From Mustelus asterias (lineage: Eukaryota): a stretch of DNA of 59,000 nt. The stretch spans positions 1 to 59,000 of the forward strand of contig NW_027592264.1 in assembly GCF_964213995.1 (NCBI RefSeq). Reading direction: 5' to 3'. The translations under genes were made by a program, and so were the position numbers. The notes beneath the pieces are model-generated. The model was not told the DNA's origin. It searched no databases and worked only from the letters and a program-made list of their open reading frames with translations. Below, one piece after another: positions 2,861 to 59,000 of the stretch. Position 1 is the first letter of the stretch, and the number at the start of each line of letters is the position of its first letter.

Positions 2861-3757
2861 ATGGACAAACCGTGGAAATGTGAGGATTGTGGTAAAGGAT
2901 TCAATTATCCATACTTGCTGGAAAACCATAGACACAGTCACACTGGAGAGAGGCCATTCATCTGTTCTGTGTGTGGGAAAGGATTCACTACCTCATCCCA
3001 CCTGCTGTTACACCAGCGAACTCACACTGAGGAGAGGCCGTTCAGCTGCTCCACCTGTGGAAAGGGGTTCTCATGTTCATCCAACCTCAGTGCACATCAG
3101 CGAGTTCATACTGGGGAGAGATCGTTCACCTGCTCCTTGTGTGGGAAGGATTTTGCTGGGCCATCCGGTCTTTGGTCACACCAGCGAATTCACACAGGAG
3201 AGAAGCCATTCACCTGTTCTGTGTGTGGTAAGAGATTCACTCTGTCATCTAACCTGCTGTCACACCAGCGAGTTCACACAGAGGAGAGACCGTTCAGCTG
3301 CACTTCCTGTGGAAAGAGGTTCAGGTCTTCATCCAACCTCAGTACACACAAGCGAGTTCACACTGGGGAAAGGCTGTTCACCTGTTCCACGTGTGGGAGG
3401 GAATTCACCAATTCATCCGGCCTCCTGTCACATCAGCGAATTCACACTGAGGAGAAGCCATTTATTTGCACATACTGTGGAAAGAGTTTCAGGCAGTTAT
3501 CAATCCTCACTGCTCATCAACGCACTCACACTGGGGAGAGACCATTCACTTGCTCCATGTGTGGGAAGGGATTCACTCAGTCTGGCAGCCTGCATTTCCA
3601 TGAGCTCACGCACACTGGGGAGAGGCCATTCACCTGCTCTGTGTGTGGGAAGGGATACACTCGGTCATCCCACTTGCTGACACATCTGCAAGTTCACAAT
3701 TGTCAGCAGGAGTTGGACTTTGCAGTTACTGCAGCTGTTAATCACATCCAGGATTGA
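2861..3757 (+). CDS. C2H2 zinc-finger protein, 10 tandem fingers (ZNF gene 1)
   Basis: 298-aa ORF of CxxC..HxxxH repeats with TGE(R/K)P linkers; strong Kozak ACCATGG. Confidence 0.9.
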   Translation: MDKPWKCEDCGKGFNYPYLLENHRHSHTGERPFICSVCGKGFTTSSHLLLHQRTHTEERPFSCSTCGKGFSCSSNLSAHQRVHTGERSFTCSLCGKDFAGPSGLWSHQRIHTGEKPFTCSVCGKRFTLSSNLLSHQRVHTEERPFSCTSCGKRFRSSSNLSTHKRVHTGERLFTCSTCGREFTNSSGLLSHQRIHTEEKPFICTYCGKSFRQLSILTAHQRTHTGERPFTCSMCGKGFTQSGSLHFHELTHTGERPFTCSVCGKGYTRSSHLLTHLQVHNCQQELDFAVTAAVNHIQD

Positions 3758-4019
3758 TAGTCTGACAATATTTGGTTTGTTTCTGCTGACATTAACAATC
3801 GCTACAACTGGCTGAAGTTTAATGTTCTGAGATGTCACTGATTTTCAGGGCTGCTGTGTCCCTTTTTAAAAGCACCATCTGTGATTTTTTAAATTCAGGA
3901 ACTCTCAACAGGAACTTGTTGATAATAAGTTTATGAACTTTTCCTGAAATCTGAAATTGATGTTTGGTGCAAACTGTACAATTCAGTGTCTGAAAGGTTC
4001 CACTGCTTAAGATTTCCAA

Positions 4020-4290
4020 TTGTCTCCAGACAGGACAGCCAGTGAGATTCTGCAAGTCCAGGAGGCAAGCTGTGGGGGTTACTGTCTGGAGACAATACAC
4101 ATCTCTTTAACCTGTGCTTAATGCTCCCTCCACTCACATTGTTTGTATCTTTAAGACCTGGTTAGCAGTAGAGATTCGCATTCTTATCAGTATTCTGTGA
4201 CTTGATTTTGTGTCTCTGTGCCCTGTTTGAGAGCTCTATCTGATGAAGGAGCAGCGCTCCGAAAGCTAATGGTATTTGCTACCAAATAAA
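4020..4290 (+). mobile_element. Penelope-like element 3' fragment with inverted 5' portion
   Basis: 4020-4083 matches the PLE 3' region in reverse; 4082-4290 matches 9256-9474 in sense. Confidence 0.8.
4236..4272 (+). ncRNA. Minimal type I hammerhead ribozyme motif
   Basis: CUAU-CUGAUGA-A-GGAGC/AGC/GCUCC-GAA-AGCU-A-AUGG: intact core, stem II, palindromic stem III, stem I. Confidence 0.8.
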
Positions 4291-7749: not shown

Positions 7750-8040
7750 AATGACGCCGTTAATACCCAGGTGCCCGTGCGGGTGTGAAAGTGTCCTATT
7801 CATTCCACAGGAGCCCATTGCGCAGCGCAGTTATGTATCTGGAGCGTGCGCAGTGTCACTTTGCTCGGAGCCCTGAGTGCGGGAGCCGCTTTTTTCAGTG
7901 GGTGAGTCGGTGGGGCTGCGGGAGAAATGGAGCCGGGAGTCGGGGTCGGGAGGGAGCTCTGGCTTCACAAACACCCGCTGTAGGCCGCACAGCCCGAATA
8001 GACCCTGCAGGTCCCGGGTTTACAGCTCCCACGCTTTAAT
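7750..8040 (+). promoter_or_regulatory. CpG-rich promoter/first exon of ZNF gene 2
   Basis: GCGCAGCGCAG and GCGTGCGCAG (NRF1-like); donor GTGAGT at 7902; downstream TTCACAAACACCCGCTG shared with gene 1 intron start; acceptor TTTTACAG ending 9786. Confidence 0.55.
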
Positions 8041-8269
8041 CCCGGGAAGAAGTTGAACACCAGGTTAAAGTCCAACAGGTTTATTTGGTTGCAAAAGCCT
8101 CACAAGCCACACTACCAAATAAACCTGTTGGACTTTAACCTGGTGTTGTTAAACTTCTTACTGTCTTTACCCCGCCCAACGCCGGCATCTCCACATCATG
8201 ACTTTAATCTCGGGAAGAAGTTTAACAACACCAGGTTAAAGTCCAACAGGTTTATTTGGTAGCAAAAGC

Positions 8270-8310
8270 CTCACAAGCTTTCGGAGCCCCAAGCCCCTTC
8301 TTCAGGTGAG
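8270..8310 (-). ncRNA. Minimal hammerhead ribozyme motif
   Basis: CUCAC-CUGAAGA-A-GGGGC..GCUCC-GAA-AGCU-U-GUGAG, 5-bp stem I. Confidence 0.8.
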
Positions 8311-8709
8311 TGGGAATTCTGTTCACAAACAGGGCTTATAAAGACACAAACACAATTTATATGAATAATGGTTGGAATGCGAATACTTACAGCTAATCAA
8401 GTCTTTAAGATACAAACAATGTGAGTGGAGAGAGCATCAAGACAGGCTAAAGAGATGTGTATTGTCTCCAGACAGGACAGCCAGTGAAACTCTGCAGGTC
8501 CAGGCAGGCTGTGGGGATTACAAATAGTGTGACATGAACCCAATATCCCGGTTGAGGCCGTCCTCGTGTGCGGAACTTGGCTATCAGTTTCTGCTCAGCG
8601 ACTCTGCGCTGTCATGTGTCGTGAAGGCCGCCTTGGAGAACGCTTAGCCAAATATCAGAGGCCGAATGTCCGTGACCGCTCAAGTGCTCCCCAACAGGTA
8701 GAGAACAGT

Positions 8710-9210
8710 CTACCTGTTCTCCAACAGACCATTGTCCGCAGCAAACTACCCAGCCTTCAGGAGAACAGTGACCATGACACCACACAACCCTGCCACAGCA
8801 ACCTCTGCAAGACGGGCCGGATCATCGACACGGATGCCATCATCTCACGTGAGAACACCATCCACCAGGTACACGGTACAGACTCTTGCAACTCGGCCAA
8901 CGTTGTCTACCTGATACGCTGCAGGAAAGGATGTCCCGAGGCATGGTACATTGGGGAAACCATGCAGATGCTACGACAACGGATGAATGAACACCGCTCG
9001 ACAATCACCAGGCAAGACTGTTCTCTTCCTGTGGGGGAGCACTTCAGCAGTCACGGGCATTCAGCCTTGGATCTTCAGGTAAGCGTTCTCCAAGGCGGCC
9101 TTCACGACACACGACAGCGCAGAGTCGCTGAGCAGAAACTGATAGCCAAGTTCCGCACACATGAGGACGGCCTAAACCGGGATGTTGGATTTATGTCACA
9201 TTATCAGTAA
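8710..9210 (+). pseudogene. Penelope-like GIY-YIG endonuclease C-terminal fragment (Neptune-like Cys motif upstream)
   Basis: NVVYLIRC..WYIGET..LRQRMNEH..VGEHF..AEQKLI..GLN, preceded by PCHSNLCKT; RT part missing (5'-truncated). Confidence 0.85.
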
Positions 9211-9419
9211 CCCCCACAGCTTGCCTCCTGATCTTGCAGAATCTTACAAGCTGTTCTGTCTGGAGACAATACGCATCTCTTTAACCTGTGTTTAATGTTC
9301 CCTCCACCCACATTATCTGTACCTTTAAGACCTGGCTGGCTGTAGAGATTTACATTCTAATTAGTATTCTGTAACTTGATGTTGTGTCTCTGTGCACTTT
9401 TGGAGAACAGATTTTCACT

Positions 9420-9456
9420 CCATCTGACGAAGGAGCAGTGCTCCGAAAGCTTATGG
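9420..9456 (+). ncRNA. Minimal hammerhead ribozyme motif
   Basis: CCAU-CUGACGA-A-GGAGC/AGU/GCUCC-GAA-AGCU-U-AUGG. Confidence 0.8.
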
Positions 9457-10136
9457 TATTTGCTACCAAATAAACCTGTTGGACTTTAACCTGGTGTTGT
9501 GAGACTTCTTACTGTGCTTACCCCAGTCCAACGCCGGCATCTCCACATCCAGGACAGGAAGCAGTGAGCATGGATCTGTGAATCAGCCTCAATCAGCACC
9601 TTCAGGAGAATTGGGAGGGTGAATATTAGATACAGCAGAGTGAGAATGGAGGGAGAGTGTGTGGGATGGAGATTTACAGCTTTTTGGGACTGAAATAGGA
9701 AAGAATGTTCCATAGAAACTAGAATTGTCTGTTCTGACTTTCTATCCTGTACTGACACTGATGACTTTTGTAAATTCATTTTACAGGATATTGAAAGAGG
9801 AATCACAGGCCGAAATCTCAAACGTCACGTCAGATCTGACAGAGTCATATTCCTTGGGAGCTGAATATCATCGGACTTTGAATCGCGAAGGAGAAATGAT
9901 TGTCCAGTTTGTCGATTTGAAAAGAGTTCGACCATCAGTGTGACGGGAAAAGCACCAACACACTGCCACACTCGAGTGAGAGTGTTCTAGTGCTCGGACT
10001 AAAGAGCTTTAACTAGTTACACCGCCTGAATAAATATCACACCATTCACAGCGGGGAGAGACTGTACCCGTGCTGTGTGTGTGGACGAGGCTTGAACTGA
10101 TTGTCCACCCAAGACAGAGGTCAGGACACCTGCACC

Positions 10137-10811
10137 ATGGAGAAACCATGGAAATGTGTGGACTGTGGGAAGAGATACAGATCCCAATCTCAGCTGGAAG
10201 CTCATCGGCGCAGCCACACTGGGGAGAGGCCATTCACTTGCACTCAGTGTGGGGAGGGATTCAGTCATTTATGCAGCCTGCTGACACACCAGCGAGTTCA
10301 CACTGGGGAGAGGCTGTTCACCTGCTCTCAGTGTGGGAAGGGATTCACTTGTTCATCCCACCTGCGGAGGCACCAGCGAGTTCACACGGCAGAGAGACCA
10401 TTTACATGTCCTCAGTGTGGGAAGGGATTCACTTGTTCATCCCACCTGCAGACACACCAGCGAGTTCACACTGGGGAGAGGCCATTCAGCTGCTCTCATT
10501 GTGGGAAGGGATTCACTCAGTTATCCAACCTGCGGAAACACCAGCGAGTTCACACTGGGGAGACGCCATTCAGCTGCCCTCAGTGTGGGGAGGGATTCAC
10601 TTGTTCATCCAGCCTGCGGAGGCACCAGCGAGTTCACACTGGGGAGAGACCATTCACCTGCTCTGATTGTGGCAAGGGATTCAGTCAATCATCCAACCTG
10701 GTAAAGCACCAGCGAATTCACACTGGGGACAGGCCATTCACCTGCTCCGTGTGTGGGAAGGGATTCACTCAGTCACCTCACCTGCTGAAACACCATCATG
10801 TTCACGAGTGA
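10137..10811 (+). CDS. C2H2 zinc-finger protein, 8 fingers (ZNF gene 2)
   Basis: ORF of C2H2 repeats; ACCATGG start at 10137 (MEKPWKC), equivalent to paralogs. Confidence 0.9.
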
Positions 10812-12806: not shown

Positions 12807-13514
12807 AACATAAGAACTAGGAGCAGGAGTAGGCCATCTGGCCCCTCGAGCCTCGTGGCTGATCTTTTTGTGGACTCAGCTCCACTTACACGCCTGCTCA
12901 CCATAGCCCTTAATTCCTTTACTGTTCAATAATTTATCTATCCTTGCCTTAAAAACATTCAATGAGGTAGCCCCAACTGCTTCACTGGGCAGGGAATTCC
13001 ACAGATTCACAACCCTTTGTGTGAAGAAGTTCCTCCTCAACTCAGTCCTAAATCTGCTTCCCCTTATTTTGAGGCTATGCCCCCAAGTTCTAGTTTCACC
13101 CGCCAGTGGAAACAACTTCCCTGCTTCTATCTTATCTATTCCCTTCATAATCTTATATGTTTCTATAAGATCTCCCCTCATTCTTCTGAAATCCAATGAG
13201 TATAGCCCCAGTCTATTCAGTTTCTGCTCATAAGCCAACCCTCTCAACTCCGGAATCAACCTCGTGAATCTCCTCTGCACCCCCTCCAGTGCCAGTATAT
13301 CCTTTCTCAAGTAAGGAGACCAAAACTGTACACAGTATTCCAGGTGTGGCCTCACCAGCACCTTATACAGCTGCAACATAATCTCGCTGTTTTTAAACTC
13401 CATCCCTCGAGCAATGAAGGACAAAATTCCATTTGCCTTCTTAATTACCTGTTGCACCTGCAAACCAACTCTTTGAGATTCCTGCACAAGGACACCCCTG
13501 TCCCTCTGCACAGC

Positions 13515-14222
13515 GTAAGAAGTCTCACAACACCAGGTTAAAGTCCAACAGGTTTATTTGGTAGCAAATACCATAAGCTTTCGGAGCACTGCTCCTTCGT
13601 CAGATGGAGTGGAAATGTGCTCTCAAACAGTGCAAACAGACAAAATCAAATTGCAGAATACTGATTAGAATGCGAATCCTCCAGCCAGCCAGGTCTTAAA
13701 GGTACAGACAATGTGGGTGGAGGGAACAGTAAACACGGGTTCAAGAAATGTGTATTGTCTCCAGACAGAACAGCTATTAAGATTCTACAAGCCCAGGAGG
13801 CAAGCTGTGGGTGTTACTGATAATGTGACATAAATCCAACATCCCGGTTTAGGCCGTCCTCATGTGTGCGGAACTTGGCTATCAGTTTCTGCTCAGCGAC
13901 TCTGCGCTGTCGTGTGACGTGAAGGCCGCCTTGGAGAACGCTTACCTGAAGATCCAAAGCTGAATGCCCGTGACTGCTGAAGTGCTCCCCCACAGGAAGA
14001 GAACAGTCTTGCCTGGTGATTGTCGAGCGGTGTTCATTCATCCGTTGTCGTAGCGTCTGCATGGTTTCCCCAATGTACCATGCCTCGGGACATCCTTTCT
14101 TGCAGCGTATCAGGTAGACAATGTTGGCCGAGTTGCAAGAGTAGGTACCGTGTACCTGGTAGATGGTGTTCTCACGTGAGATGATGGCATCCGTGTCAAT
14201 GATCCGGCACGTCTTGCAGAGG
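13515..14222 (-). mobile_element. Penelope-like element, 5'-truncated (GIY-YIG plus terminal repeat)
   Basis: ORF 13814-14062 nearly identical to the GIY-YIG C-terminus at 8962-9210; terminal repeat at 13515-13607. Confidence 0.9.
13571..13607 (-). ncRNA. Minimal hammerhead ribozyme motif
   Basis: CCAU-CUGACGA-A-GGAGC/AGU/GCUCC-GAA-AGCU-U-AUGG on minus strand. Confidence 0.8.
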
Positions 14223-14291
14223 TTTGTTTGAGGTCATTAGGTTACATTGAAGCTTCATATGTTTCATATGAAGCAATTTTTAAAAGCAGTA

Positions 14292-14328
14292 TCTCGGCCT
14301 TTTGGCTAAGATGCAAATGAGATCAAGT
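14292..14328 (+). pseudogene. U2 snRNA 5'-end-derived fragment
   Basis: TCTCGGCCTTTTGGCTAAGAT (21 nt matching the U2 5' stem-loop region), then after a short insert AGATCAAGT; rest of U2 absent. Confidence 0.75.
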
Positions 14329-15797
14329 CATAGAGGAGGAAGTGCTTTCCCTCCTCCAATCAGCTTGGCCTCTGCACAGCAGCATGCTGCAATTTTTTCC
14401 CATTTAAATAATAGTCCATTTTGCTGTTATTCCTACCAAAATGGATGACCTCACATTTACCAACATTGTACTCCATCTGTCAGACCCTCGCCCACTCACT
14501 TAGATTATCTATATCCCTTTGCAGACTTTCAGCATCCTCTGCACACTTTGCTCTTAGTGTCATCTGCGAATTTTGACACACTACACTTGGTCCCCAACTC
14601 CAAATCATCTATGTAAATCGTAAACAATTGCGGTCCCAACACTGATCCCTGAGGCACACCACTAGTCACTGATCGCCAACCAGAAAAACACCCATTTACC
14701 CCCACTCTTTGCTTTCTGTTAGTTAACCAATCCTCTATCCATGCCAATACATTACCTGTAACACTGTGCACCTTTATCTTATGTAGCAGTCTTTGGTGCG
14801 GCACCTTGTCAAATGCCTTCTGGAAATCCAGATACACCACATCCACAGGTTCCCCATTGTCCACTGCACATGTAATGTTCTCAAATAATTCCACCAAATT
14901 AGTCAAACATGACCTGCCCTTCATGAACCCATGCTGCATCTTACCCATGGGACAACTTATATCCAGATGTCTCGCTATTTCTTCCCTGATGATAGATCCA
15001 AGGATTTTCCCTCCTACAGAAGTTAAGCTAACCGGCCTCTTGTTACCTGCCTTTTGACTACCTCCTTTTTTAAATGTTTGTGATTTTGTGAAACCTGTTT
15101 TTGTTGTCTGAGCTGACTGGAATTAGAGCCAGAGCAGGAGTATTCCAGGGGAATGATTTGGAGATAAAGGAAAATCCAGCAGATGCTGGAATTCTGAATA
15201 AAACAGACTTGCTGAGTTTATCCAGCATTTTCTCTATTTATTATAATGATTTTGGGACCTGGGTTTGAATCCCACCACGTTTCAACAAAAATATTGATGA
15301 GCATGAATTAATTGTTGTAAAAACACATCTGGTTCTCTAATTCCCTTCAAGGAAGGAAATCTGCCGCCCTGATCCAGTCTAACCGACATGTGACTGGATT
15401 CACAAACAATTCAAGGGCTGACTGGGTAAACAGGGAATGTCACCATCAGAAAAACAGAGCCCCCTGGAGGGCAGAAGTGTTAGGACAGGTTACGGAGAGG
15501 TTAAAACTGTCATCATTGAGAACAACACAGACTTTAGTGGAACAACTGGTCCCAAACACAATCTCTTGTAATTAGTGTGGCAGGGTGTGGTGAATCAGGT
15601 TTAAAAAGAGTCAAATTATATATGTTTTCTAGTTTGGACAACCACATTTAAATCTGGGACTCGGATGAGGATATAAATTGGTGTTTGGTGGTAAGATCTA
15701 AATCTGTGTATTACGCCGTGAAGCCTTAAACCCAGAGTGAGAATATTTCAAACCAGGGTTCAAAATAAATGGCTGTGGATGGTGAATTCACTCTCAA

Positions 15798-17648: not shown

Positions 17649-18572
17649 TCACTGGTGAACTTGTTGATGTCTCAGGAGCCATTGTGACTGAGTGAATCCC
17701 TTCCCACACACAGAGCAGTTGAATGGCCTCTTAGTGTGAGTGCGTTGGTGAGCCAGCAGGTTGAAAGACTTTGCGAATCCCTTCCCACACACGGAGCAAG
17801 TGAATGGCCTCTCCCCTGTGTGAACTCGCTGGTGAGCAGAGAGGTTGGATGACCGACTGAATCCCTTCCCACACACGGAGCATGTGAATGGTCTTTCTGC
17901 AGTGTGAGTGCATCGGTGAGCAGTGAGGTTGGATGACTGCCTGAAATTCTTTCCACAGTCAGTGCAGCTGAATGGCTTCTCTTCAGTGTGAATTTTCTGG
18001 TGTCTCAGCAGGGTGGGTAAAACTGTGAATCCCTTTCCACACACAAAGCAAGTAAACGGTCTCTCCCCAGTGTGAATTCGCTGGTGTGCAATGAGGGAGG
18101 ATGCCTGTCTGAAACTCCGTCCACAGTCAGTGCAGCTGAATGGCTTCTCCTCAATGTGAACTCGCTGGTGTGACAGTAAGTGGGATGACCCAGTGAATCC
18201 CTTCCCACAGTCGGAGCAGGTGAACAGCCTCTCCCCAGTATGAACTCGCTGGTGTGACAGTAGGTGGAATGACTGAGTGAATCCCTTCCCACATACGGAG
18301 CAGATGAATGGTCTCTCCCCGGTGTGAGTGTGTTGGTGCACAGTGAGTGCTGAAGAATGCCTGAACCTCTTCCCACAGGAGGTGCAGGTGAATGGCTTTT
18401 CCTCAGTGTGAATTCTCTGGTGAGACCAAAGGCCCGATGACTGAATGAATCCCTCCCCACGGACAGAGCAGGTGAACGGTCTCTCACCAGTGTGACTACG
18501 CCGATGATTTTCCAGCAGGGAAGGGTAACTGAATCCTTTCCCACAGTCCCCACATTTCCACGGTTTCTCCAT
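17649..18572 (-). CDS. C2H2 zinc-finger protein, 11 fingers (finger 2 degenerate, CSVR) (ZNF gene 3)
   Basis: 307-aa ORF; ATCATGG start; AATAAA on minus at 17431-17436; candidate acceptor near 18905. Confidence 0.9.
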   Translation of the reverse strand: MEKPWKCGDCGKGFSYPSLLENHRRSHTGERPFTCSVRGEGFIQSSGLWSHQRIHTEEKPFTCTSCGKRFRHSSALTVHQHTHTGERPFICSVCGKGFTQSFHLLSHQRVHTGERLFTCSDCGKGFTGSSHLLSHQRVHIEEKPFSCTDCGRSFRQASSLIAHQRIHTGERPFTCFVCGKGFTVLPTLLRHQKIHTEEKPFSCTDCGKNFRQSSNLTAHRCTHTAERPFTCSVCGKGFSRSSNLSAHQRVHTGERPFTCSVCGKGFAKSFNLLAHQRTHTKRPFNCSVCGKGFTQSQWLLRHQQVHQ

Positions 18573-19130
18573 GATACTGGTGTCCTTATGTTTCTCCAGG
18601 TTAAACGATCAGTTGAAGCCTCATCCACACACAGAACACGTGTACAGTTTCTCCTTGCTGTGAATGGTGTGATGTTTTTTAAGGCTGTGTAACTGGATAA
18701 AGCTCTTTCCACAGTCAACTCACTGAAACACTCTCACTCGGGTGTGCGTGTATCTTGGTGCTTTTTCAGTCACACTGATGTTTGAAATCTTCTCCTCCAG
18801 ACAGAAGACAAACATTTCTCCTTCCACGTTCAAAGTCTGAGGATATTTAAGTCCAAGTGAATCGAGACTCTGTCTGATTATGATGTGATGTTTCTTCACC
18901 TCACCTGTAAAAGGAGTTTACAAAATTAATCACTGTCAGTCCAGGATAGAAATTTTGAACAGGCAATTCTAATTCTCTGGAAAATTTCTTCCTCTCTTGT
19001 TCCCCAAATCAATAAATTCCTGTCCCACAAACTCTCCCTCCTCCCTGGGCTGAAATCCAAACCCATCTCACCATTTCTTTTCTCCACTCCCAGTTTGCTC
19101 CCTCCCTCTCCTCTGTCTGGGTTCAGTTCT

Positions 19131-19296
19131 GATGTGGAGATGCCGGCGTTGGACTGGGGTGAACACAGTAAGAGTTTTAACAACACCAGGTTAAAGTCCA
19201 ACAGGTTTATTTGGTAGCAAACACCTAATGGTAGCTAATGGCATTTGCTACCAAATAAACCTGTTGGACTTTAACCTGGTGTTGTTAAAACTCTTA
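19131..19296. mobile_element. Penelope terminal-repeat insertion as inverted pair with TSD
   Basis: 56-bp inverted arms 19166-19221/19244-19299; direct repeat CTGGGTTCAGTTCT at 19117-19130 and 19297-19310. Confidence 0.85.
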
Positions 19297-19354
19297 CTGG
19301 GTTCAGTTCTCCAGCTGCTGTCTGCAGACTGACAATAAAACCAATGGGTCTTAT

Positions 19355-20345
19355 TGGGGGTGTTGGGGCCTCCAGCGGGTGTTTGTGAATCCTCCCCGCC
19401 CACCTCCCAGGGTTTCCTTCCTTCCCAGAGATCAGAGTCCTCATTGATTTGAGGCCAAAGTGTAACCTCTTATTTATTGTCCCCCTCCCCCATCCTCTGA
19501 TGTGAACCATCCTCCAGTGGCTGAGCCAGGATGGGGCCGTTAACCTGGGCCTGTTCCCGGGAGGGAGGGAGGGAGGGAGAAGCCCCGCAGCTGCAAACCA
19601 GGGAGCTGACAATGATTCTGAAGGGTTTGCGGATCCACAAAGTGTTTCCAAATCCTCCCAGCCACCGCCTAACGCTGACTCCGCTTCTCCGGGACAAACA
19701 AGCGCCAAGGACAGCAATGACACTGCGCATGCTCCACATCACAATGCCCGGGGACTGATTGACGGCAGCTCCGGACCAATAGGAAGAGGGGCGGGGCTGG
19801 AGGACCGAGCGGGAGTGGCTGGTCCTCCAACCAATCGGAGTGAATGAGGGGCGGTACCTGAAGCATGCGCAGTGCGGCTGAACCAGATAAACCTGTTGGA
19901 CTTTAACCTGGTGTTGTTTGACTTGTTGCTGTGTTTACCCCAGTCCAACGCCGGCATCTCCCCATCAGTGCGGGTAATGGCAGACGGCCGGTTTTAGTTT
20001 GGACGCGAGATCAATACAAGGTAGAGGGCGGCGTGCGGGGAATGATAAATGTGGCGGGTGGGTGAGAGGCTTTGTAAACATGTTGTTCAAACCCAAACCC
20101 CGGAAATGAACTTCCCGGTCCCCCCCTTTGTACCAAATGGAGCGGCAGCTTGTAGTGTTCGACCCGGGCTGACTGCCGCCATTGAGGCTGCATGTGGGAG
20201 GCCGGCAGGGATTGTGATTGGAGAGGGAAGCCCTGACGTCACAATGGAATGGGTGAGGGTGTGACGTCACAATGGAATGGGTGAGGGTGTGACGTCACAA
20301 TGGAATGGGTGAGGGTGTGAGGTCACAATGGAATGGGTGAGGGTT
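19355..20345 (-). promoter_or_regulatory. Promoter/first exon of ZNF gene 3; inverted paralog of the gene 1 promoter incl. 28-bp CRE repeat
   Basis: Near-identical reverse complement of ~510-1269. Confidence 0.7.
19878..19966 (+). mobile_element. Short Penelope terminal-repeat insertion
   Basis: ACCAGATAAACCTGTTGGACTTTAACC..GGCATCTCCCCATC flanked by AGTGCGG repeats; absent from paralog at 894-900. Confidence 0.85.
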
Positions 20346-23998: not shown

Positions 23999-24589
23999 AT
24001 GGAGAAACCATGGAAATGTGGGGACTGTGGGAAGGGATACAGAGCCCCATGTCTGCTGGAAGCTCATCGGCGCAGCCACACTGGGGAGAGGCTGTTCATC
24101 TGCTCTCAGTGTGAGAAGGGATTTAATCAGTTCTCCAGCTTACGGACACACCAACGAGTTCACACTGGGGAGAGACCATTCACCTGCTCTCAATGTGGGA
24201 AGGGATTCATTCAGTCATCCCACCTGCAGACACACCAGCGAGTTCACACTGGGGAGAGGCCATTCACCTGCTCTCAGTGTGGGAAGGGATTCACTCAGTT
24301 ATCCAGCCTGCAGACACACCAGCAAGTTCACACTGGGGAGAGTCCGTTCACCTGCTCTCAGTGTGGGAAGGGATTCACTCGGTTACCCGACCTGCGGACA
24401 CACCAGCGAATTCACACTGGGGAGAAACCATTCACCTGCTCTCAGTGTGGGAAGGGCTTCACTCGGTCATCCACCCTGCGGACACATCAGCCAGTTCACA
24501 CTGGGGAGAGACCATTCACCTGCTCTCAGTGTGAGAAGGGTTTCAGCGTTTCATCCCGGCTGCTGAGACACCAGCGAGTTCACGAGTGA
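23999..24589 (+). CDS. C2H2 zinc-finger protein, 7 fingers (ZNF gene 4)
   Basis: 196-aa ORF, ACCATGG start, highly similar internal fingers. Confidence 0.9.
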
Positions 24590-30696: not shown

Positions 30697-31650
30697 TCAT
30701 AAGAACATAAGAAATAGGAGGAGGAGTAGGCCATCTAGCCCCTCGAGCCTGCCCCGCCATTCAATAAGATCATGGCTGATCTGAAGTGGATCAGTTCCAC
30801 TTACCCGCCTGATCCCCATAACCCCTAATTCCCTTACCGATCAGGAATCCATCTATCCGTGATTTAAACATATTCAACAAGGTAGCCTCCACCACTTCAA
30901 TGGGCAGAGAATTCCAGAGATTCACCACCCTCTGAGAGAAGAAGTTCCTCCTCAACTCTGTCCTAAACCGACCCCCCTTTATTTTGAGGCTGTGCCCTCT
31001 AGTTCCAGTTTCCTTTCTAAGTGGAAAGAATCTCTCCACCTCTACCCTATCCAGCCCCTTCATTATCTTATAGGTCTCTATAAGATCCCCCCTCAGCCTT
31101 CTAAATTCCAACGAGTACAAACCCAATCTGCTCGGTCTCTCCTGATAATCAACACCCCTCATCTCCGGTATCAACCTGGTGAACCTTCTCTGCACTCCCT
31201 CCAAGGCCAAAATATCCTTCCGCAAATAAGGGGACCAATACTGCACACAGTATTCCAGCTGCGGCCTCACCAATGCCCTGTACAGATGCAGCAAGACATC
31301 TCTGTTTTTATATTCTATCCCCCTTGCGATATAGGCCAACATCCCATTTGCCTTCTTGATCACCTGTTGCACCTGCAGATTGGGTTTTTGCGTCTCATTC
31401 ACAAGGACCCCCAGGTCCCTCTGCACAGCAGCATGTTGTAATTTCTTTCCATTTAGATAATAATCCAATTTGCTATTATTTCTTCCAAAGTGAATAAGCT
31501 CGCATTTGTTAACGTTATACTCCATCTGCCAGATCCTCGCCCACTCACTCAGCCTGTCCAAATCTCTCTGCAGACCTTCTACGCCCTCCACACGATTCAC
31601 TTTTCCACTTATCTTTGTGTCGTCTGCAAACTTTGTTACCCTCCACTCAC
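30697..31650 (-). mobile_element. CR1 LINE 3' end
   Basis: ORF 30791-31600; TTCTTATGTTCTTATG tail. Confidence 0.9.
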
Positions 31651-37169: not shown

Positions 37170-37470
37170 GGAGGACACGTTGGGACAGTTGTTAGAACTG
37201 ATGCCTCACAGCGCCAGTGACTAAGGTTCAATTTCTCGGGTTACTGTATATGCGGAGTTTTCACGTTCTCCCCCTGTCTGCGTGGGTTTCCTCCTGGTGA
37301 TCCGCTTTCCTTTTCAAAGATGTGTGGGTTAGGTTGATTGTCGTGATGTGGAGATGCCGGCGTTGGACTGGGGTAAACACAGTAAGAAGTTTAACGACAC
37401 CAGGTTAAAGTCCAACAGGTTTATTTGGTAGCAAAAGCCACAAGATTTCCGAGCCTTAAGCTCCTTCTTC
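37170..37470. mobile_element. Degenerate SINE (plus) truncated by Penelope terminal repeat (minus, 37346-37470) with decayed hammerhead
   Basis: SINE ends AAAGATGTGTGGGTTAGGTTGATT, then GATGTGGAGATGCCGGCGTTGG.. Confidence 0.75.
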
Positions 37471-39312
37471 TCTCTCCCTGCCTCTCTGTCTCCATCTGTT
37501 TCTGCTCGAGAAGAGACAGGGAGAGAGAGAACAGGGAGAGAGAGAGACGGGGAGAGACAGAGATAAAGCGAGAGAGACAGATATTTGATAATTAATTGTG
37601 TATGGTCGCATTATTGAGTGTGGTTTAATTTGGTGATTTTTTTAATACAGAGAGGCAGAGAGAGAGAGGTGAAGACAGTGACATTCTCTCCCTGGCACCC
37701 TCGCAAGTTCAAAGACACAAAAGCTGCAGACACTCACACACACAAACTGGGTTTGGTAAGTTTCCCAATCTCTGCAGCTTCCCACGTGGCCCAGGGTTTG
37801 AATTGAAATTTAAAAGCAGCTTGGAGACACTGCAGGATTTTTGAGTTGAGTTTCTCCCCCCCTCACCCTGTAAATATAAAATAGAAATTCCTGGATTAAA
37901 ATATTCCCTTGGACAGAGCAGAGGTGTGTGAGTGGTGTGTGTGTGTGTCTGAGACCTAGGCTGGATTTGGGAATATCTGCCTGCTGAAGAGGGTCAGTGA
38001 AACCATCCTGGCTGAATATCTCATCGCTAAAGAGTCACAGAGAGAGATATCTGATAAATAAATGTGTTACTGAACCCACTCTGGATGCTCCCTCTATCTC
38101 TGTCTTTCTCACTAACTTCATTGCAGTGTTAATGTAAGCCTTACTTGTGACACTAATATATAAACTTCAAAACTTTCAACTTTAAAAACTCTGTCTGTGT
38201 GTCTCTGTCTCAATTCAGACACTAGTTCAGTGCCAGGTTGAGAGGGGGTCAGTATTGAGCAGAATGGGAGGCAGTTTGATACAAAGTTTGCAGAAACTGC
38301 AGCGAGTGTTTGTAAACATGTTGGGGTTGTGGAAAGGTCAGTGTGTAACAAGCTGAGGGAAGGTGTTTCCACTTCACATGTGGCTACTTTTTGGCAATGG
38401 GAGTTACCTTTGCATCTACAGGGAGCTCTGAAGCCTCATGGCTTTCTGCCTGCCTCTGTTTGAACAGTTTAATATGTTTCAGCACTGAGACCTCTGGCCC
38501 TTGTTGGGAATATCAGTCTCCCAGAATACCAGTATACCTGACTGCCCACCTCCCCGCCCGCCACCCCCAGCCCCCAACCCTGTGTGTGTGTTGTCCCAAG
38601 TCTGGAGACTTCCCCACAGTCCCCTGAAAGGTTTAAACTGCCTCTGAGAAAACACCCTTTTAAAAACAAAATCCCCAGCAAGATCCCACAAGGTGCAGTC
38701 AGCTGTGTTGAGTGTTTTGTAATTTGGAAAAAGTTTATACAGAGAGAAAGAGAGAGGCAGAGAGGGGCTGAGACAGTGAAATCAAACCCCCCGGGACACC
38801 CAGAATGAAAATTACACAGCACAAAATCCCAGGATTGCCCCTTTCCAGGTTTTACTGAGAGATTGTCCAACTAAATATTAATTCCTGGGAAAAAGAGGGA
38901 GAGAGAGAATAAAGAGAGGTAGATAGAGGAAGGAAATGGAGAGAAAAGCAGAGAGAAATAGACAGAATGGGGGAAAAGCTGTGGAGAGGATGAAATGAAA
39001 ATCTGAACATCTGTAAACTGAATTGTAAAGGGCTCTGTGAATTTTATTCAACAATTAGGTTCATTGCTCTGTCTCCGACCCCTGTTATTTTAGATTTAAA
39101 GCAAACTTATAGACAGTTTCATACATAATTTACTCTGCCACCCACCAAAGGGTTAACCTGTTTGTGACTAATTGCAAAGCCGGGATATTTTAACCCCAGG
39201 GTTTCAAACTCCAGCCCCCCACACATCCCACAATCGAACCAGAACTGGTTCATTCGAGGAAGCGAGATTAAAATTAAACCTGGATCAGGGTAATAAAGAG
39301 ACGACAACTCAC

Positions 39313-42582: not shown

Positions 42583-44324
42583 TGTTAAGATATACAGTAT
42601 GTTTTACATTGTAATATTCTAATTGGGATATTATAGAGTGATACATTTCCATTTCTTCCAGGGAATATGTTGTGAAGATCTAGTTTAATAATTCATGTGT
42701 TTCAGAAATATTAATTTCGGATTTTTAAAAAAATGTAACAACTGGAAAACCTGGGTTGAGAATCTGATAAAAACACCCTGAGGGAATTTGCAGTCACAAG
42801 GTGTGGCCCATGTTGGTTTGAGAAGTCAAAGCGAGAAGGGTAAGAACAAGTGTAACACGGCAGCTGGGCTCTTTTAGCTGGAGACATTGGGTCTGACAAT
42901 TTTTTTCCTGTCTTTGTTCGAGAGGGGAATTCACGCAGACCTCAAGAAAAAAGGTTTGGTTCTGAAACTAAAAGCTAATTAATTTAAACATCTTTTGGAC
43001 AGCTGTGGGAGTGGGAGCTGTGAACCAGCTGTGGGACCAGGAGCTGTGAACCAGCTGTGGGACCGGGAGCTGTGAACCAGCTGTGGGAGTGGGAGCTGTG
43101 AACCAGCTGTGGGAGTGGGAGCTGTGAACCAGCTGTGGGAGTGGGAGCTGTGAACCAGCCGTGGGACCAGGAGCTGTGAACCAGCTGTGGAACCGAGAGC
43201 TGTGAACCAGCTGTGGGAGTGGGAGCTGTGAACCAGCTGTGGGACCGGGAGCTGTGAACCAGCTGTGGGACCAGGAGCTGTGAACCAGCTGTGGGAGCGG
43301 GAGCTGTGAACCAGCTGTGGGAGCGGGAGCTGTGAACCAGCTGTGGGAGTGGGAGCTGTGAACCAGCTGTGGGAGTGGGAGCTGTGAACCAGCTGTGGGA
43401 GTGGGAGCTGTGAACCAGCTGTGGGACCAGGAGCTGTGAACCAGCTGTGGAACCGAGAGCTGTGAACCAGCTGTGGGAGTGGGAGCTGTGAACCAGCTGT
43501 GGGACCGGGAGCTGTGAACCAGCTGTGGGACCAGGAGCTGTGAACCAGCTGTGGGAGCGGGAGCTGTGAACCAGCTGTGGGAGCGGGAGCTGTGAACCAG
43601 CTGTGGGAGCGGGAGCTGTGAACCAGCTGTGGGAGCGGGAGCTGTGAACCAGCTGTGGGAGCGGGAGCTGTGAACCAGCTGTGGGAGCGGGAGCTGTGAA
43701 CCAGCTGTGGGAGCGGGAGCTGTGAACCAGCTGTGAGACCAGAAGCCGAGGAGGTCATTAGGAACCATGGGTGTTCCCAATGTTTAAATCCCCCAGCAAG
43801 AAGGCAGTGAAGCCCATGCTTGGATTGAGGAGTCCATGTTTTGAGTCAATTTTGAAATCTCAAAGGAAAGTTGGAGAGTTGTTTAGCCGAAAGCTAATAG
43901 AAGGATCCTCATGAAATCTTGGAGCCTGGAGAATAGCTGGAATACTGAGGAGAATTAAAGTGAATTCTGGGAGCTTTGACATACCTTTGGGATTTGTCCC
44001 AGGAACAGAAGTGAATGTACATTCAAGATATTAAGTATAAGGGCATTCTTGTCGAGGAGTAAGGGTTTAAAAAGTACAAAAAAGGAAAAATGCTGCAAAA
44101 CCTCAGCAGGTCTGGCAGCATCTGTAGAGAGTGAAAACAGAGTTCATGTTTTGAGTCAGAACTGAGTTTACAGAATAAATCTTTACAAAATATAATTCAT
44201 CGAGCTGGTTTTTAATATTCTGTTTATATTCAGTAAAGTTTGATTTTGTTTAAAAACCTGGAATCTTGTGATGGGTGTTTGGATTTCTCACTGAACGTTA
44301 ATGTTCTTGACCCGAATTATAACA
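42583..44324 (+). mobile_element. Possible solo LTR-like element containing the 26-bp minisatellite
   Basis: Begins TGTTA and ends TAACA, interrupts a CR1 tail; no TSD found. Confidence 0.3.
43001..43735. repeat. 26-bp minisatellite (~28 units) with 260-bp higher-order repeat
   Basis: AGCTGTGGGAG(C/T)GGGAGCTGTGAACC; rare variant AACCGAG at 43191 and 43451. Confidence 0.95.
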
Positions 44325-45352: not shown

Positions 45353-46462
45353 TCAGCAGGTTGGATGACTCAGTGAATCCTTTCCTACACTCCGAGCAGG
45401 TGAACAGCCTCTCTCCTCCGTGTGAACTTGCTTGTGTTTCCGCAGGCTGGAAGGATCAGCAAATCCCTTCCCACATTCAGAGCAGGTGAAAGGCTTCTCC
45501 CCAGTGTGAACTCGACGGTGTGCGCGCAGACTGGATGACTCAGTGAATCCTTTCCCACACACACAGCAGGTGAATGGCCTCTCCCCGGTGTGAACTCGCC
45601 GGTGTTTCCAGAGGCTGGAGGAATCAGTGAATCCCTTCCCACACTCAGTGCAACTGAATGGTCTCTCTCCAGAGTGAATTCGCTGGTGTGTCAGCAGACT
45701 AGTGGACCTAGTAAATCCCTTCCCACACACAGAGCAGGGAAACGGCCTCTCTCCAGTGTGAACTGCCCGGTGTCGCAGCAAGGTTGATAACTGAGTGAAT
45801 CCCTTCCCACACACGGAGCAGGTGAATGACCTCTCCCCAGTGTGAACTGCCTGGTGGTTCTGTAGGGTAAATGATGCACTGAATCCTTTCCCACACACGG
45901 TGCAGGTGAACGGCCTCTCCCCGGTGTGGACTCGCTGATGTATCAGCAGGTGAGATGACCGAGTGAATCCCTTCCCACAGTCAGAGCAGGTGTACGGCCT
46001 CTGCCCGGTGTGTATTCGCTGGTGTCTCCGCAGGTTGGATGAAAGAGTGAATCCCTTCCCACACACTGAGCAAGCAAATGACCTCTCCCCAGTGTGAACT
46101 CGCTTGTGTCTCCGGAGGCTGGATGAATCCCCGAACCTCTTCCCACACTCAATGCAGGTGAAAGGCCTCTCCCCCGTGTGAATGCGTCCGTGTGTCAGAA
46201 GACGGGATGAATCAGTGAAACCCTTCCCACATTCAGAGCAGGTGAATGGCCTCTCCCCAGTGTGAATTTTCTGATGTGTCACCAGGTTGGATAACTGAGA
46301 GAACCCTTTCCCACAATCAGGGCAGGTGAATGGCTTCTCCCCAGTGTGACTGCGTCGATGAATCTCCAGCTCACACGGTGCTTTGAATCTTTTTCCACAG
46401 TCCCCACATTTCCACTGTTTCTCCCTGATGCGGGAGGCCTTCTGTCCCTCCAGGTTTGACAA
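45353..46462 (-). CDS. C2H2 zinc-finger ORF, 12 intact fingers, 13th frameshifted, no AUG (ZNF gene 5; possibly pseudogene)
   Basis: 369-codon ORF starting TTG with no internal Met; paralogous ATG is AGG; acceptor TTTCACAG at 46762-46760. Confidence 0.7.
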
Positions 46463-50899: not shown

Positions 50900-51607
50900 T
50901 TGAATATAGAAGAAAACAGCGCCATCCACAGTGGAGAGAAACTGTACACGTGTTGTGTGTGTGGACAAGACTTCAACCAATCATCCAGCCTTTCGGAACA
51001 TAATTACAGTCACAACAAGGAGATGGCATGGCAATGTGAGGACTGTGGGAAGGGATTCAAATACCCATCGCAGCTGGAAACTCATCGACGCCGTCACACT
51101 GGGGAGAGGCCATTCACCTGCTCCCGATGCGGGAGGGGATTCATTCAGTCATCCAGCTTGCGTATACACCAAAGGATTCACACTAAGGAGAGACCATTCA
51201 GCTGCTGTGTGTGCGGGAAGGGATTCAATCAGTCATTCAACCTAGCATTACACAAGCGAGTTCACACTGGGGAGAGGCCGTTCACTTGCTCCCAGTGTGG
51301 GAAGAGATTCAGTCAGTCAGCCAACCTAGCAAAACACCGGCGAATTCACACTGAGGCCAGACCATTCACCTGCTCTGTGTGTGGGAAGAAATTCAAGGAG
51401 TCATCCAACCTAGCAAAACACCAGCGAGTTCACACTGGGGAGAGGCCATTCGTCTGTTCCCAGTGTGGGAAGGGATTTACTCACTCAGCCAATCTGCTGA
51501 GACACCAACGAATTCACACTGGAGAGAAGCCATTCATCTGCTGTGTGTGTGGGAAGGGATTCAGTCAGTCGTCCACTCTGCTGACACATCAGCGAATTCA
51601 TAAGTAA
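50900..51607 (+). CDS. C2H2 zinc-finger protein, 7-8 fingers (ZNF gene 6); first in-frame ATG 51023
   Basis: C2H2 repeats; ORF track start is TTG; in-frame TAA at 50879 separates it from an upstream ATG at 50858. Confidence 0.85.
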
Positions 51608-57792: not shown

Positions 57793-58731
57793 TCACTCGT
57801 GAACTCGCTGGTGTCTCAGTAGGTGATAGGACTGAGTAAATCCCTTCCCACACTGGGAGCAGATGAACGGCCTCTCTCCAGTGTGAATTCGCTGGTGTCT
57901 CAGCAGTTGGAATGACTGAATGAATCCTATCCCACACTCAGAGCAGATGAAAGGCCTCTCTGTAGAGTGAACACGCTGGTGTCTCAGGAGGAGAGCTGAC
58001 TGAGTGAATCCCTTACCACAGATGAAACAGATGAATGGGTTCTCCGCAGAGTGAATTTGTTGATGTCTCTGCAAGCTGCACGACCGACTGAATCGCTTTC
58101 CACATTTAGTGCAAGGGAACGGTCTCTCCTCGGTATGAACTCGCTGGTGTCGCAGGAGACTGAATGATCGAGTGAATCCCTTACTGCACACAGAACAGGA
58201 GAATGGGCTCTGACTAGAGTGAATGTATTGGTGTCTCCGTAGATTCCTTGTGCTTTTGAAGCTCTTACCACAGTCCGAACATTTAAAAAGTCTCTTATCA
58301 GTGTGAACAAGCTGATGAGATGTGAGATTAGTTAAACTGGTGAATCCCTTCCCACACACAGAGCAGCTAAATGGTCTCTCCCCAGTGTGAACTTGCTGAT
58401 GTACAGTGAGGTGAGATGACTGAGTGAATCCCATGCCACATTGGGAGCAGGTGAACGGCCTCGCCCCAGTGTAAACACGCTGGTGTCTCAGCAGGGTGGA
58501 TGTCCGAGCAAATCCCTTCCCACACTTGAAGCAAGTGAATGGTCTCTCGCCAATGTGACCACGTCGATGAGTTTCCAGATCTGATGGGGATCTGATCACT
58601 TTACCACAGTCCCCACATTTCAGTGGCCTGTGTGTGATGTTGACTCCAGTGTGAGTGCATCGATGATATTCCAGCCGGGATGGATAATTAAATCCCTTCC
58701 CACAGTCCCCACATTTCCACGGTTTCTCCAT
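57793..58731 (-). CDS. C2H2 zinc-finger protein, 11 fingers (finger 3 HQRVY) (ZNF gene 7)
   Basis: 312-aa ORF, ACCATGG start MEKPWKC; promoter lies beyond window end. Confidence 0.9.
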   Translation of the reverse strand: MEKPWKCGDCGKGFNYPSRLEYHRCTHTGVNITHRPLKCGDCGKVIRSPSDLETHRRGHIGERPFTCFKCGKGFARTSTLLRHQRVYTGARPFTCSQCGMGFTQSSHLTVHQQVHTGERPFSCSVCGKGFTSLTNLTSHQLVHTDKRLFKCSDCGKSFKSTRNLRRHQYIHSSQSPFSCSVCSKGFTRSFSLLRHQRVHTEERPFPCTKCGKRFSRSCSLQRHQQIHSAENPFICFICGKGFTQSALLLRHQRVHSTERPFICSECGIGFIQSFQLLRHQRIHTGERPFICSQCGKGFTQSYHLLRHQRVHE

Positions 58732-59000
58732 GGTGCTGGTGTCCTTGTGTCTCTCCAGGTTGCACGATCAGTTGAAGCTTCATCCACACACAGAACACAT
58801 GTACAGTTTCTCCTCGCTGTGAATAGTGTGATGTTTTATCAGGCTGTGTTACTGGTTGAAGCTCCTTCCAGTCAGTTCACTGGAACACTCTCATTCGGGT
58901 GTGTGTGTCTCGGTGCTTTTCCAGTCACAGTGATGTTTGAAATCTTTTCCCACAGACAGAACAGACATTCTCCTCCTTCCACAGTGTAAGGTTGATGATA

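Follow-up and report, generated by a model that had tools for sequence, protein, structure and literature searches.

How did two unrelated repeats come to lie head-to-head inside a single target-site duplication? The locus that raises this question is in a repeat-dense 59-kb window (the whole 59,000-nt stretch of Mustelus asterias DNA that was analysed), where an 854-bp insert (13515-14368) sits in a LINE between the two copies of an exact 12-bp duplication, CCTCTGCACAGC, that cannot be extended on either side. The features of the site and its surroundings are as follows.

13503-13514, plus strand: left copy of the target-site duplication (exact repeat; empty paralogue at 31418)
14369-14380, plus strand: right copy of the target-site duplication (exact repeat)
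12879-13514, minus strand: host CR1-like LINE, C-terminal part of ORF2 with 212 open codons (frame analysis)
14369-15098, minus strand: host CR1-like LINE, RT part matching Pfam RVT_1 (E 3e-25), with the frame broken near 14532
2879-3700, 10155-10800, 17717-18554, 24017-24580, 45398-46408, 50951-51600 and 57861-58963, both strands: C2H2 zinc-finger arrays

Such a duplication would arise by chance with a probability of 3.6e-8 for a fixed position, rising to 7.5e-7 when 10 nt of slack is allowed. The sole further copy of CCTCTGCACAGC in the window is at 31418, inside a paralogue of the host LINE (30701-31647, 76% identical) that runs uninterrupted through the site with a single copy of the 12-mer and represents the empty-site state. 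Uninterrupted LINE sequence upstream of 14369 is also present in contigs of all four sequencing runs examined (see below), and removal of the insert in silico leaves the host reading frame open across the site. A first-pass annotation had described one unit with a 12-bp duplication inserted into an otherwise continuous CR1, and these observations agree with it; one duplication encloses both arms of the insert, and there is none around either arm alone. The name CR1 is a label that we presume to apply, and we refer to the clade as CR1-like. Elsewhere in the window, the seven zinc-finger arrays contain 67 motifs and form a tandem gene cluster on both strands, there is a tandem repeat with a 52-bp period at 43000-43746 (~14 copies, 92-97% alike), and no tRNA was found.

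The left part of the insert is a minus-strand Penelope element.

13515-14224, minus strand: 5'-truncated Penelope whose 3' end is the tail-less one, comprising the GIY-YIG C-terminus and 3' UTR/pLTR (similarity, Pfam)
13817-14224, minus strand: open 136-codon remnant of the Penelope ORF (ORF, Pfam and protein match)
13579-13603, minus strand: hammerhead-like core, CTGACGA ... GAAA (read by eye)

Up to 14224 this arm is 94% identical to a plus-strand copy at 8800-9512. It contains the C-terminal GIY-YIG endonuclease (Pfam GIY-YIG, E 4e-5), and the remnant is 97% identical in protein to a Mustelus asterias model; among the 32 matches listed, the named proteins are mostly from sharks. We note that the Penelope GIY-YIG region is also inside shark gene models for septin 5a, XRCC5, FAM210B, cytochrome P450 and a NOXP20-like protein, which are probably mis-annotated or include an exonised repeat. 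What we take to be a hammerhead-like core has no Rfam match and is absent from the computed minimum-energy fold. The 3' ends of the 12 Penelope hits that reach the 3' region are at 799-806 (four) and 838-841 (five) of the reference, with the other three at 763, 787 and 828; the two clusters, ~35 nt apart and accounting for nine of the twelve, fit an optional tail, and the purified Anolis element (PMC11167929) has a like arrangement of its 3' ends. A longer copy (8712-9552) runs on as Penelope past the point that matches 14224, where the insert diverges, and the foreign part is therefore not a normal internal part of Penelope. The proposed fusion of a minus-strand Penelope 3' end to 146 bp stands, with a correction to its extent: Penelope reaches 14224 and the foreign part is 144 bp (14225-14368), with T14224 common to both.

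The foreign segment is laid out as follows.

14224-14368, plus strand: piece from the interior of an abundant family of U2-derived repeats, with T14224 common to it and Penelope (single copy in the window)
14252-14274, plus strand: hairpin A (folding)
14292-14312, plus strand: U2 snRNA positions 7-27, stem I (alignment to the Rfam U2 model)
14289-14291 with 14312-14314, plus strand: bases lengthening the U2 stem (folding)
14311-14318, plus strand: octamer ATGCAAAT, with the U2 stem on one side and a displaced GATCAAG at 14321-14327 on the other (three copies of the octamer in the window)
14323-14368, plus strand: hairpin C, with an inner GAGGAGG/CCTCCTC stem (14333-14339 and 14350-14356; folding)

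A hairpin, a 21-nt U2 match in the opposite orientation to Penelope and a GAGGAGG/CCTCCTC hairpin had all been noticed previously, and all three are present. The U2 match is exact over its 21 nt, with a chance expectation of ~1e-8, and the full Rfam U2 hit is weak (19.7 bits, E 0.19), with none at the gathering score. The 146-nt stretch folds better than shuffled sequences on both strands (z -3.3 plus, z -4.5 minus); the minus-strand value is the more extreme, so folding does not choose the strand, and the U2 match is the sole ground for treating the plus strand as sense. The segment is not a later insertion, as it has no duplication of its own, and it contains no ORF. By Rfam comparison there is no U2 3' part from nt 39 at the locus, and the window has no second copy of the segment (7 matches vs 7.6 expected). 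We rejected a copy of U2 snRNA itself, the resemblance consisting only of the 21 nt and the displaced 7-mer. Exact-pattern scans gave no matches in viral contigs, GTDB genomes or metagenomes (24-nt pattern); the sole 20-nt metagenome match has flanking sequence that does not resemble the family on either side, and was rejected as chance. A translated search for exonised pieces of the segment, a weak test, gave no score.

Public contigs bear out the suggestion of a U2-derived repeat, which forms an abundant family in four organisms. Words of 14205-14390 were found in at least 20 runs from 11 organisms and 11 studies, most at small shares. Family depth and anatomy are taken from four runs (organisms A, B, F and J; 4.4-27.9 million records each) whose kinds are unrecorded or guessed as DNA, and runs sharing fewer than five words (organisms C, D, E, G, H, I and K) were left out of the evidence. 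There are no RNA runs among the listed runs matching the segment, which is uninformative on expression. The four organisms are probably cartilaginous fishes, because the same Penelope and CR1 families are present at high depth. Contigs aligned to a 210-bp stretch that includes the flanks number 1456, 371, 2323 and 3699 in the four runs and range from <90% to >99% alike. Over the U2 stem, summed depth peaks at 0.8-3.9x that of the Penelope flank and 0.7-2.2x that of the CR1 flank, both flanks being short and possibly under-counted. Depth over the non-U2 bin 14272-14278 is 0.25-3.1x that of the Penelope flank; real U2 genes were rejected as the source of depth, since non-U2 bins are as deep. Crude copy bounds run from about 200-900 to 13,000-65,000, with the proviso that summed depth is no copy number.

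The anatomy of the family, drawn from 24 of the 237 loose contig ends and 32 of the 7866 aligned pieces, places the segment within a longer and variable repeat. The family extends beyond 14368 (one contig, 102 letters) and before 14224, and the idea that the segment is an element end is not sustained. From 14328 to 14356 the locus carries a minor variant (0.3-1% of peak depth), and the common versions have other loop and stem letters with the purine-rich/pyrimidine-rich inner stem kept, as judged by eye. Most family contigs have a C at 14290 that gives a full pair extending U2 stem I, where the window has a wobble. Hairpin A is long in organisms A and B and shorter in F and J (depth at 14258-14264 and loose ends). 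Depth declines in the 5' direction, and a single contig carries 2007 unaligned bases ahead of 14263, a pattern suggestive of dispersed copies that are 5'-truncated; abundance is clear, and dispersal is supported by the varied 5' ends and this one 2.1-kb contig. Some copies appear to have a second U2 stem upstream, since in five of the seven joints listed the U2 stem is followed, after 13-35 letters, by a return to 14224-14278. These are from three of the four runs (one in X1, one in X11 and three in X17), one contig each, and in one X17 joint TGTAGTATC follows the U2 stem, and then non-U2 letters. At the locus itself 68 non-U2 bases precede the U2 stem, the upstream stem being seen in five single contigs. 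A promoter-like motif in an X1 loose end before 14224, which we had likened to what we take to be a PSE, was dropped (agreement 0.6; nine of the 17 first letters match the X1 joint spacer), and this loose end is probably a mixed consensus.

The arms of the composite lie head-to-head, the 3' side of each abutting one copy of the duplication, with two different templates inside one duplication. Pairs of Penelope arms in this arrangement are common in the window, making up four of the eight other Penelope loci (4019-4290, 8048-8200, 8213-9552 and 19131-19299). The arms overlap within the element in three of the four; two have duplications (one exact over 14 bp, the other matching at 12 of 13 positions), and none was found in the other two. 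The duplicated pairs (8034-8214 and 19117-19310, with 13- and 14-bp duplications) each have one arm with the 3' tail and one without, and overlapping arms. In the pair at 8213-9552 the arms are only ~81% alike and a right-hand duplication was not found; this degree of likeness requires two templates if the pair is one event, and it may be two. At 4019-4290 a Penelope fragment is joined to an inverted 5' piece of 66 bp; the two arms have 15 nt of the element in common, and no duplication was found. Two further loci are of other types. One is a short Penelope 3' piece (19878-19966) flanked by an 8-nt repeat, in sequence that is duplicated at 305-1222 (95-96% alike) and whose paralogue (894-901) has an empty site. 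The second (37470-37580) is a minus-strand Penelope 3' piece followed by CT-rich and GA-rich simple repeats in inverted arrangement.

The first-pass annotation had explained the fusion by Penelope RT switching template to or from a U2-repeat RNA. In its plain form this does not fit the head-to-head arrangement, as switching yields parts that point the same way. In snRNA-LINE chimeras formed by template switching, the snRNA and the retroelement are in the same orientation. A further clue is at the inner junction.

14215-14222, minus strand: 8 nt that, read in the Penelope sense, repeat the duplication's opening 8 nt, 2 nt inside the truncation point (string match)

Positions 3-10 of the Penelope arm carry the first eight bases of the duplication, the sole match of at least 5 nt in 841 nt (p ~9e-5 for a match within the first 5 positions, noticed post hoc). 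The two other duplicated Penelope pairs have no comparable match at the inner junction. With these 8 nt a second primer could pair with Penelope RNA at the end of the first cDNA, and the match does not establish that the second template was RNA.

We lean towards an explanation in which an abundant, dispersed repeat built with U2 modules was caught up in a single Penelope integration that primed from both nicked strands. The head-to-head geometry, the duplication, both truncations, the abundance of the family and the 8-nt match are the observations on which it draws. The repeat would most likely spread as a non-autonomous retroposon, like crocodilian SINEU, and the 144 bp would be an internal piece of one minor subfamily. 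The enzyme would make nicks staggered by 12 nt, and Penelope RNA would be copied from its usual internal start into cDNA primed by the top-strand end. Pairing over 8 nt could occur between the bottom-strand end and Penelope RNA, or alternatively between the new cDNA and the top overhang, and the first cDNA would end there; the bottom-strand end would next be extended on a second RNA, presumably a U2-repeat transcript, from an internal site, and the two cDNAs would be joined 5'-to-5' via one shared base. The RNA nature of the second template, the order of the steps and the SINE-like life cycle are presumed in this scheme. A purified Anolis protein of the Penelope clade is described as nicking and extending both strands from an internal start without homology, and is predicted to be a dimer (PMC11167929). 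Against dual priming, no Penelope base follows the second primer, and the scheme therefore has to include an immediate template change; this primer pairs with the U2-repeat RNA over at most 1-3 nt.

The nature of the family could be otherwise. Instead of a short SINE it may represent the 5' region, with its U2 sequence, of an autonomous LINE of the Tx1/Keno type, or a deleted derivative; we think this unlikely. Some crocodilian Tx1 families carry U1/U2 heads (PMC4494074), and the X17 joint with TGTAGTATC ends close to U2 nt 38/39, the site of the U2-targeting LINEs Keno and Utopia, whose target site TGTAGTATC is given as resembling (PMC4640811). The 3' end of the family is beyond the sequence seen, as this reading would allow; the 144 bp, however, have no ORF. 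Moreover, the 5' ends of LINEs are as a rule much less abundant than their ORF2 parts, whereas the depth of the family equals that of the CR1 and Penelope ORF parts.

The second template may also have been DNA, the Penelope cDNA having ended at the 8-nt match and the gap having been patched by DNA repair from a genomic copy of the repeat, with no second RNA. The internal position of both ends of the piece, the 1-nt overlaps and the abundance of the family as DNA are all consistent with this, and the RNA nature of the second template is only presumed. We nonetheless consider a patch distinctly unlikely, given that the orientation and the placing of the 3' side at the duplication match the Penelope-Penelope pairs in the window, that the duplication is undamaged and falls into the same size class, and that there is no further copy of the repeat in the 59 kb.

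A single chimeric RNA, either a Penelope copy with an antisense insertion of the repeat and truncated within that insertion, or a same-orientation chimera inverted by twin priming, would need only one template, and the 8-bp inverted repeat that flanks the repeat piece is as in twin priming. One X1 contig spanning the junction between repeat and CR1 (two differences) is deep, at 336 with other listed pieces mostly at 20-45, and this may reflect duplication of the zinc-finger region, inflation by end repeat words or a multi-copy chimera. However, the 8-nt target match would have to fall on an existing junction by chance (~1e-4), and the arm retains normal Penelope bases past the match. The inner junction is also crossed by none of the listed pieces (32 of 7866), a hole that proves nothing, and we regard a pre-existing chimera as improbable. 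Two separate insertions at the same point, even with both families abundant and the window dense in nested repeats, are scarcely credible, as there is one duplication, both parts are truncated at the same base and the repeat piece lacks its 3' part.

Taken with priming from both nicked strands, the sequence evidence gives a picture that we put forward tentatively, and with some doubt as to the whole: sharks may harbour a high-copy snRNA-derived SINE family built from stacked U2 5' modules, possibly transcribed from masters inside U2 genes, and the locus may record how one Penelope enzyme used both ends of a single cut to prime synthesis on two unrelated RNAs. If so, dual priming, so far only postulated, would also account for the inverted pairs made of Penelope alone. 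Neither self-priming nor twin priming on ordinary Penelope RNA can produce an inverted arm that comes from an unrelated family, and loci with such arms open the origin of inverted Penelope arms to testing. The family, with roughly hundreds to tens of thousands of copies in several shark genomes, would provide a second and larger test case for snRNA-headed SINEs.

Among the papers listed in the literature searches, none showed a shark U2-derived repeat; a family this abundant may well already be a named or unclassified Repbase or Dfam model. The available portions of PMC5381603, PMC7922186 and PMC2912911 add nothing on such a repeat, and the word 'shark' is absent from that of PMC4640811. In the available text of PMC4494074 (Kojima 2015), the snRNA-derived SINEs termed SINEU are described solely from crocodilians, with none found outside them; SINEU-1 has repeated additions of U2 modules, transcription of snRNA-headed SINEs is posed as an open question, and its author detected no SINEU sequence in crocodilian cDNA libraries. 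As far as that description goes, SINEU and the shark family are alike in being multicopy and non-coding, the latter over the 144 bp in the shark family, with short U2 5'-derived sequence, stacked U2 modules, an internal T-run and no obvious internal promoter. They differ in host and in that the U2 stem seen in the shark family is internal and followed by the octamer. SINEU are compared here by their description, and the shark family by internal fragments that lack the tail, the full length, a duplication of their own and a Tx1 partner. By its working the shark family looks like a SINEU-type element; we do not file it as SINEU, because the tail, length and partner LINE remain outside the sequence seen, and we assume a separate origin from the crocodilian elements. 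Keno and Utopia, as presented in the available part of PMC4640811, are similar in that U2 5' sequence adjoins foreign sequence, and one upstream module of the shark family ends near nt 38-40. Unlike these elements, the segment is not followed on its 3' side by U2 from nt 39, carries no ORF in its 144 bp and does not lie in a U2 gene.

The composite resembles three known types of insertion, each in part. In snRNA-LINE chimeras, as in the accessible text of PMC4494074, snRNA-derived sequence lies 5' of a truncated retroelement within one duplication, as it does here, whereas the two parts of our composite are in opposite orientation (U2 plus, Penelope minus) and the donor is a repeat and not U2 itself. 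L1 twin or dual priming, two models that are not told apart in the portion available of the paper in which dual priming is proposed (PMC2837659), likewise has a second nick that primes a second cDNA and inverted arms in one duplication; the arms here are from unrelated families and the enzyme is Penelope's. Inverted Penelope arms are known (PMC3846280, PMC8557442), and their origin is left open in the text available, with self-priming on antisense RNA given as the explanation of head-to-head pairs (PMC3846280). The composite is like Penelope/Poseidon insertions in having head-to-head arms in one duplication, two 3' ends ~35 nt apart and a GIY-YIG enzyme (PMC3846280, PMC8557442, PMC11167929, as far as their available sections describe them), and it departs from them in having a foreign RNA-like repeat as its inverted arm, a non-palindromic junction and a duplication of 12 bp vs 8-10 bp in the rotifer.
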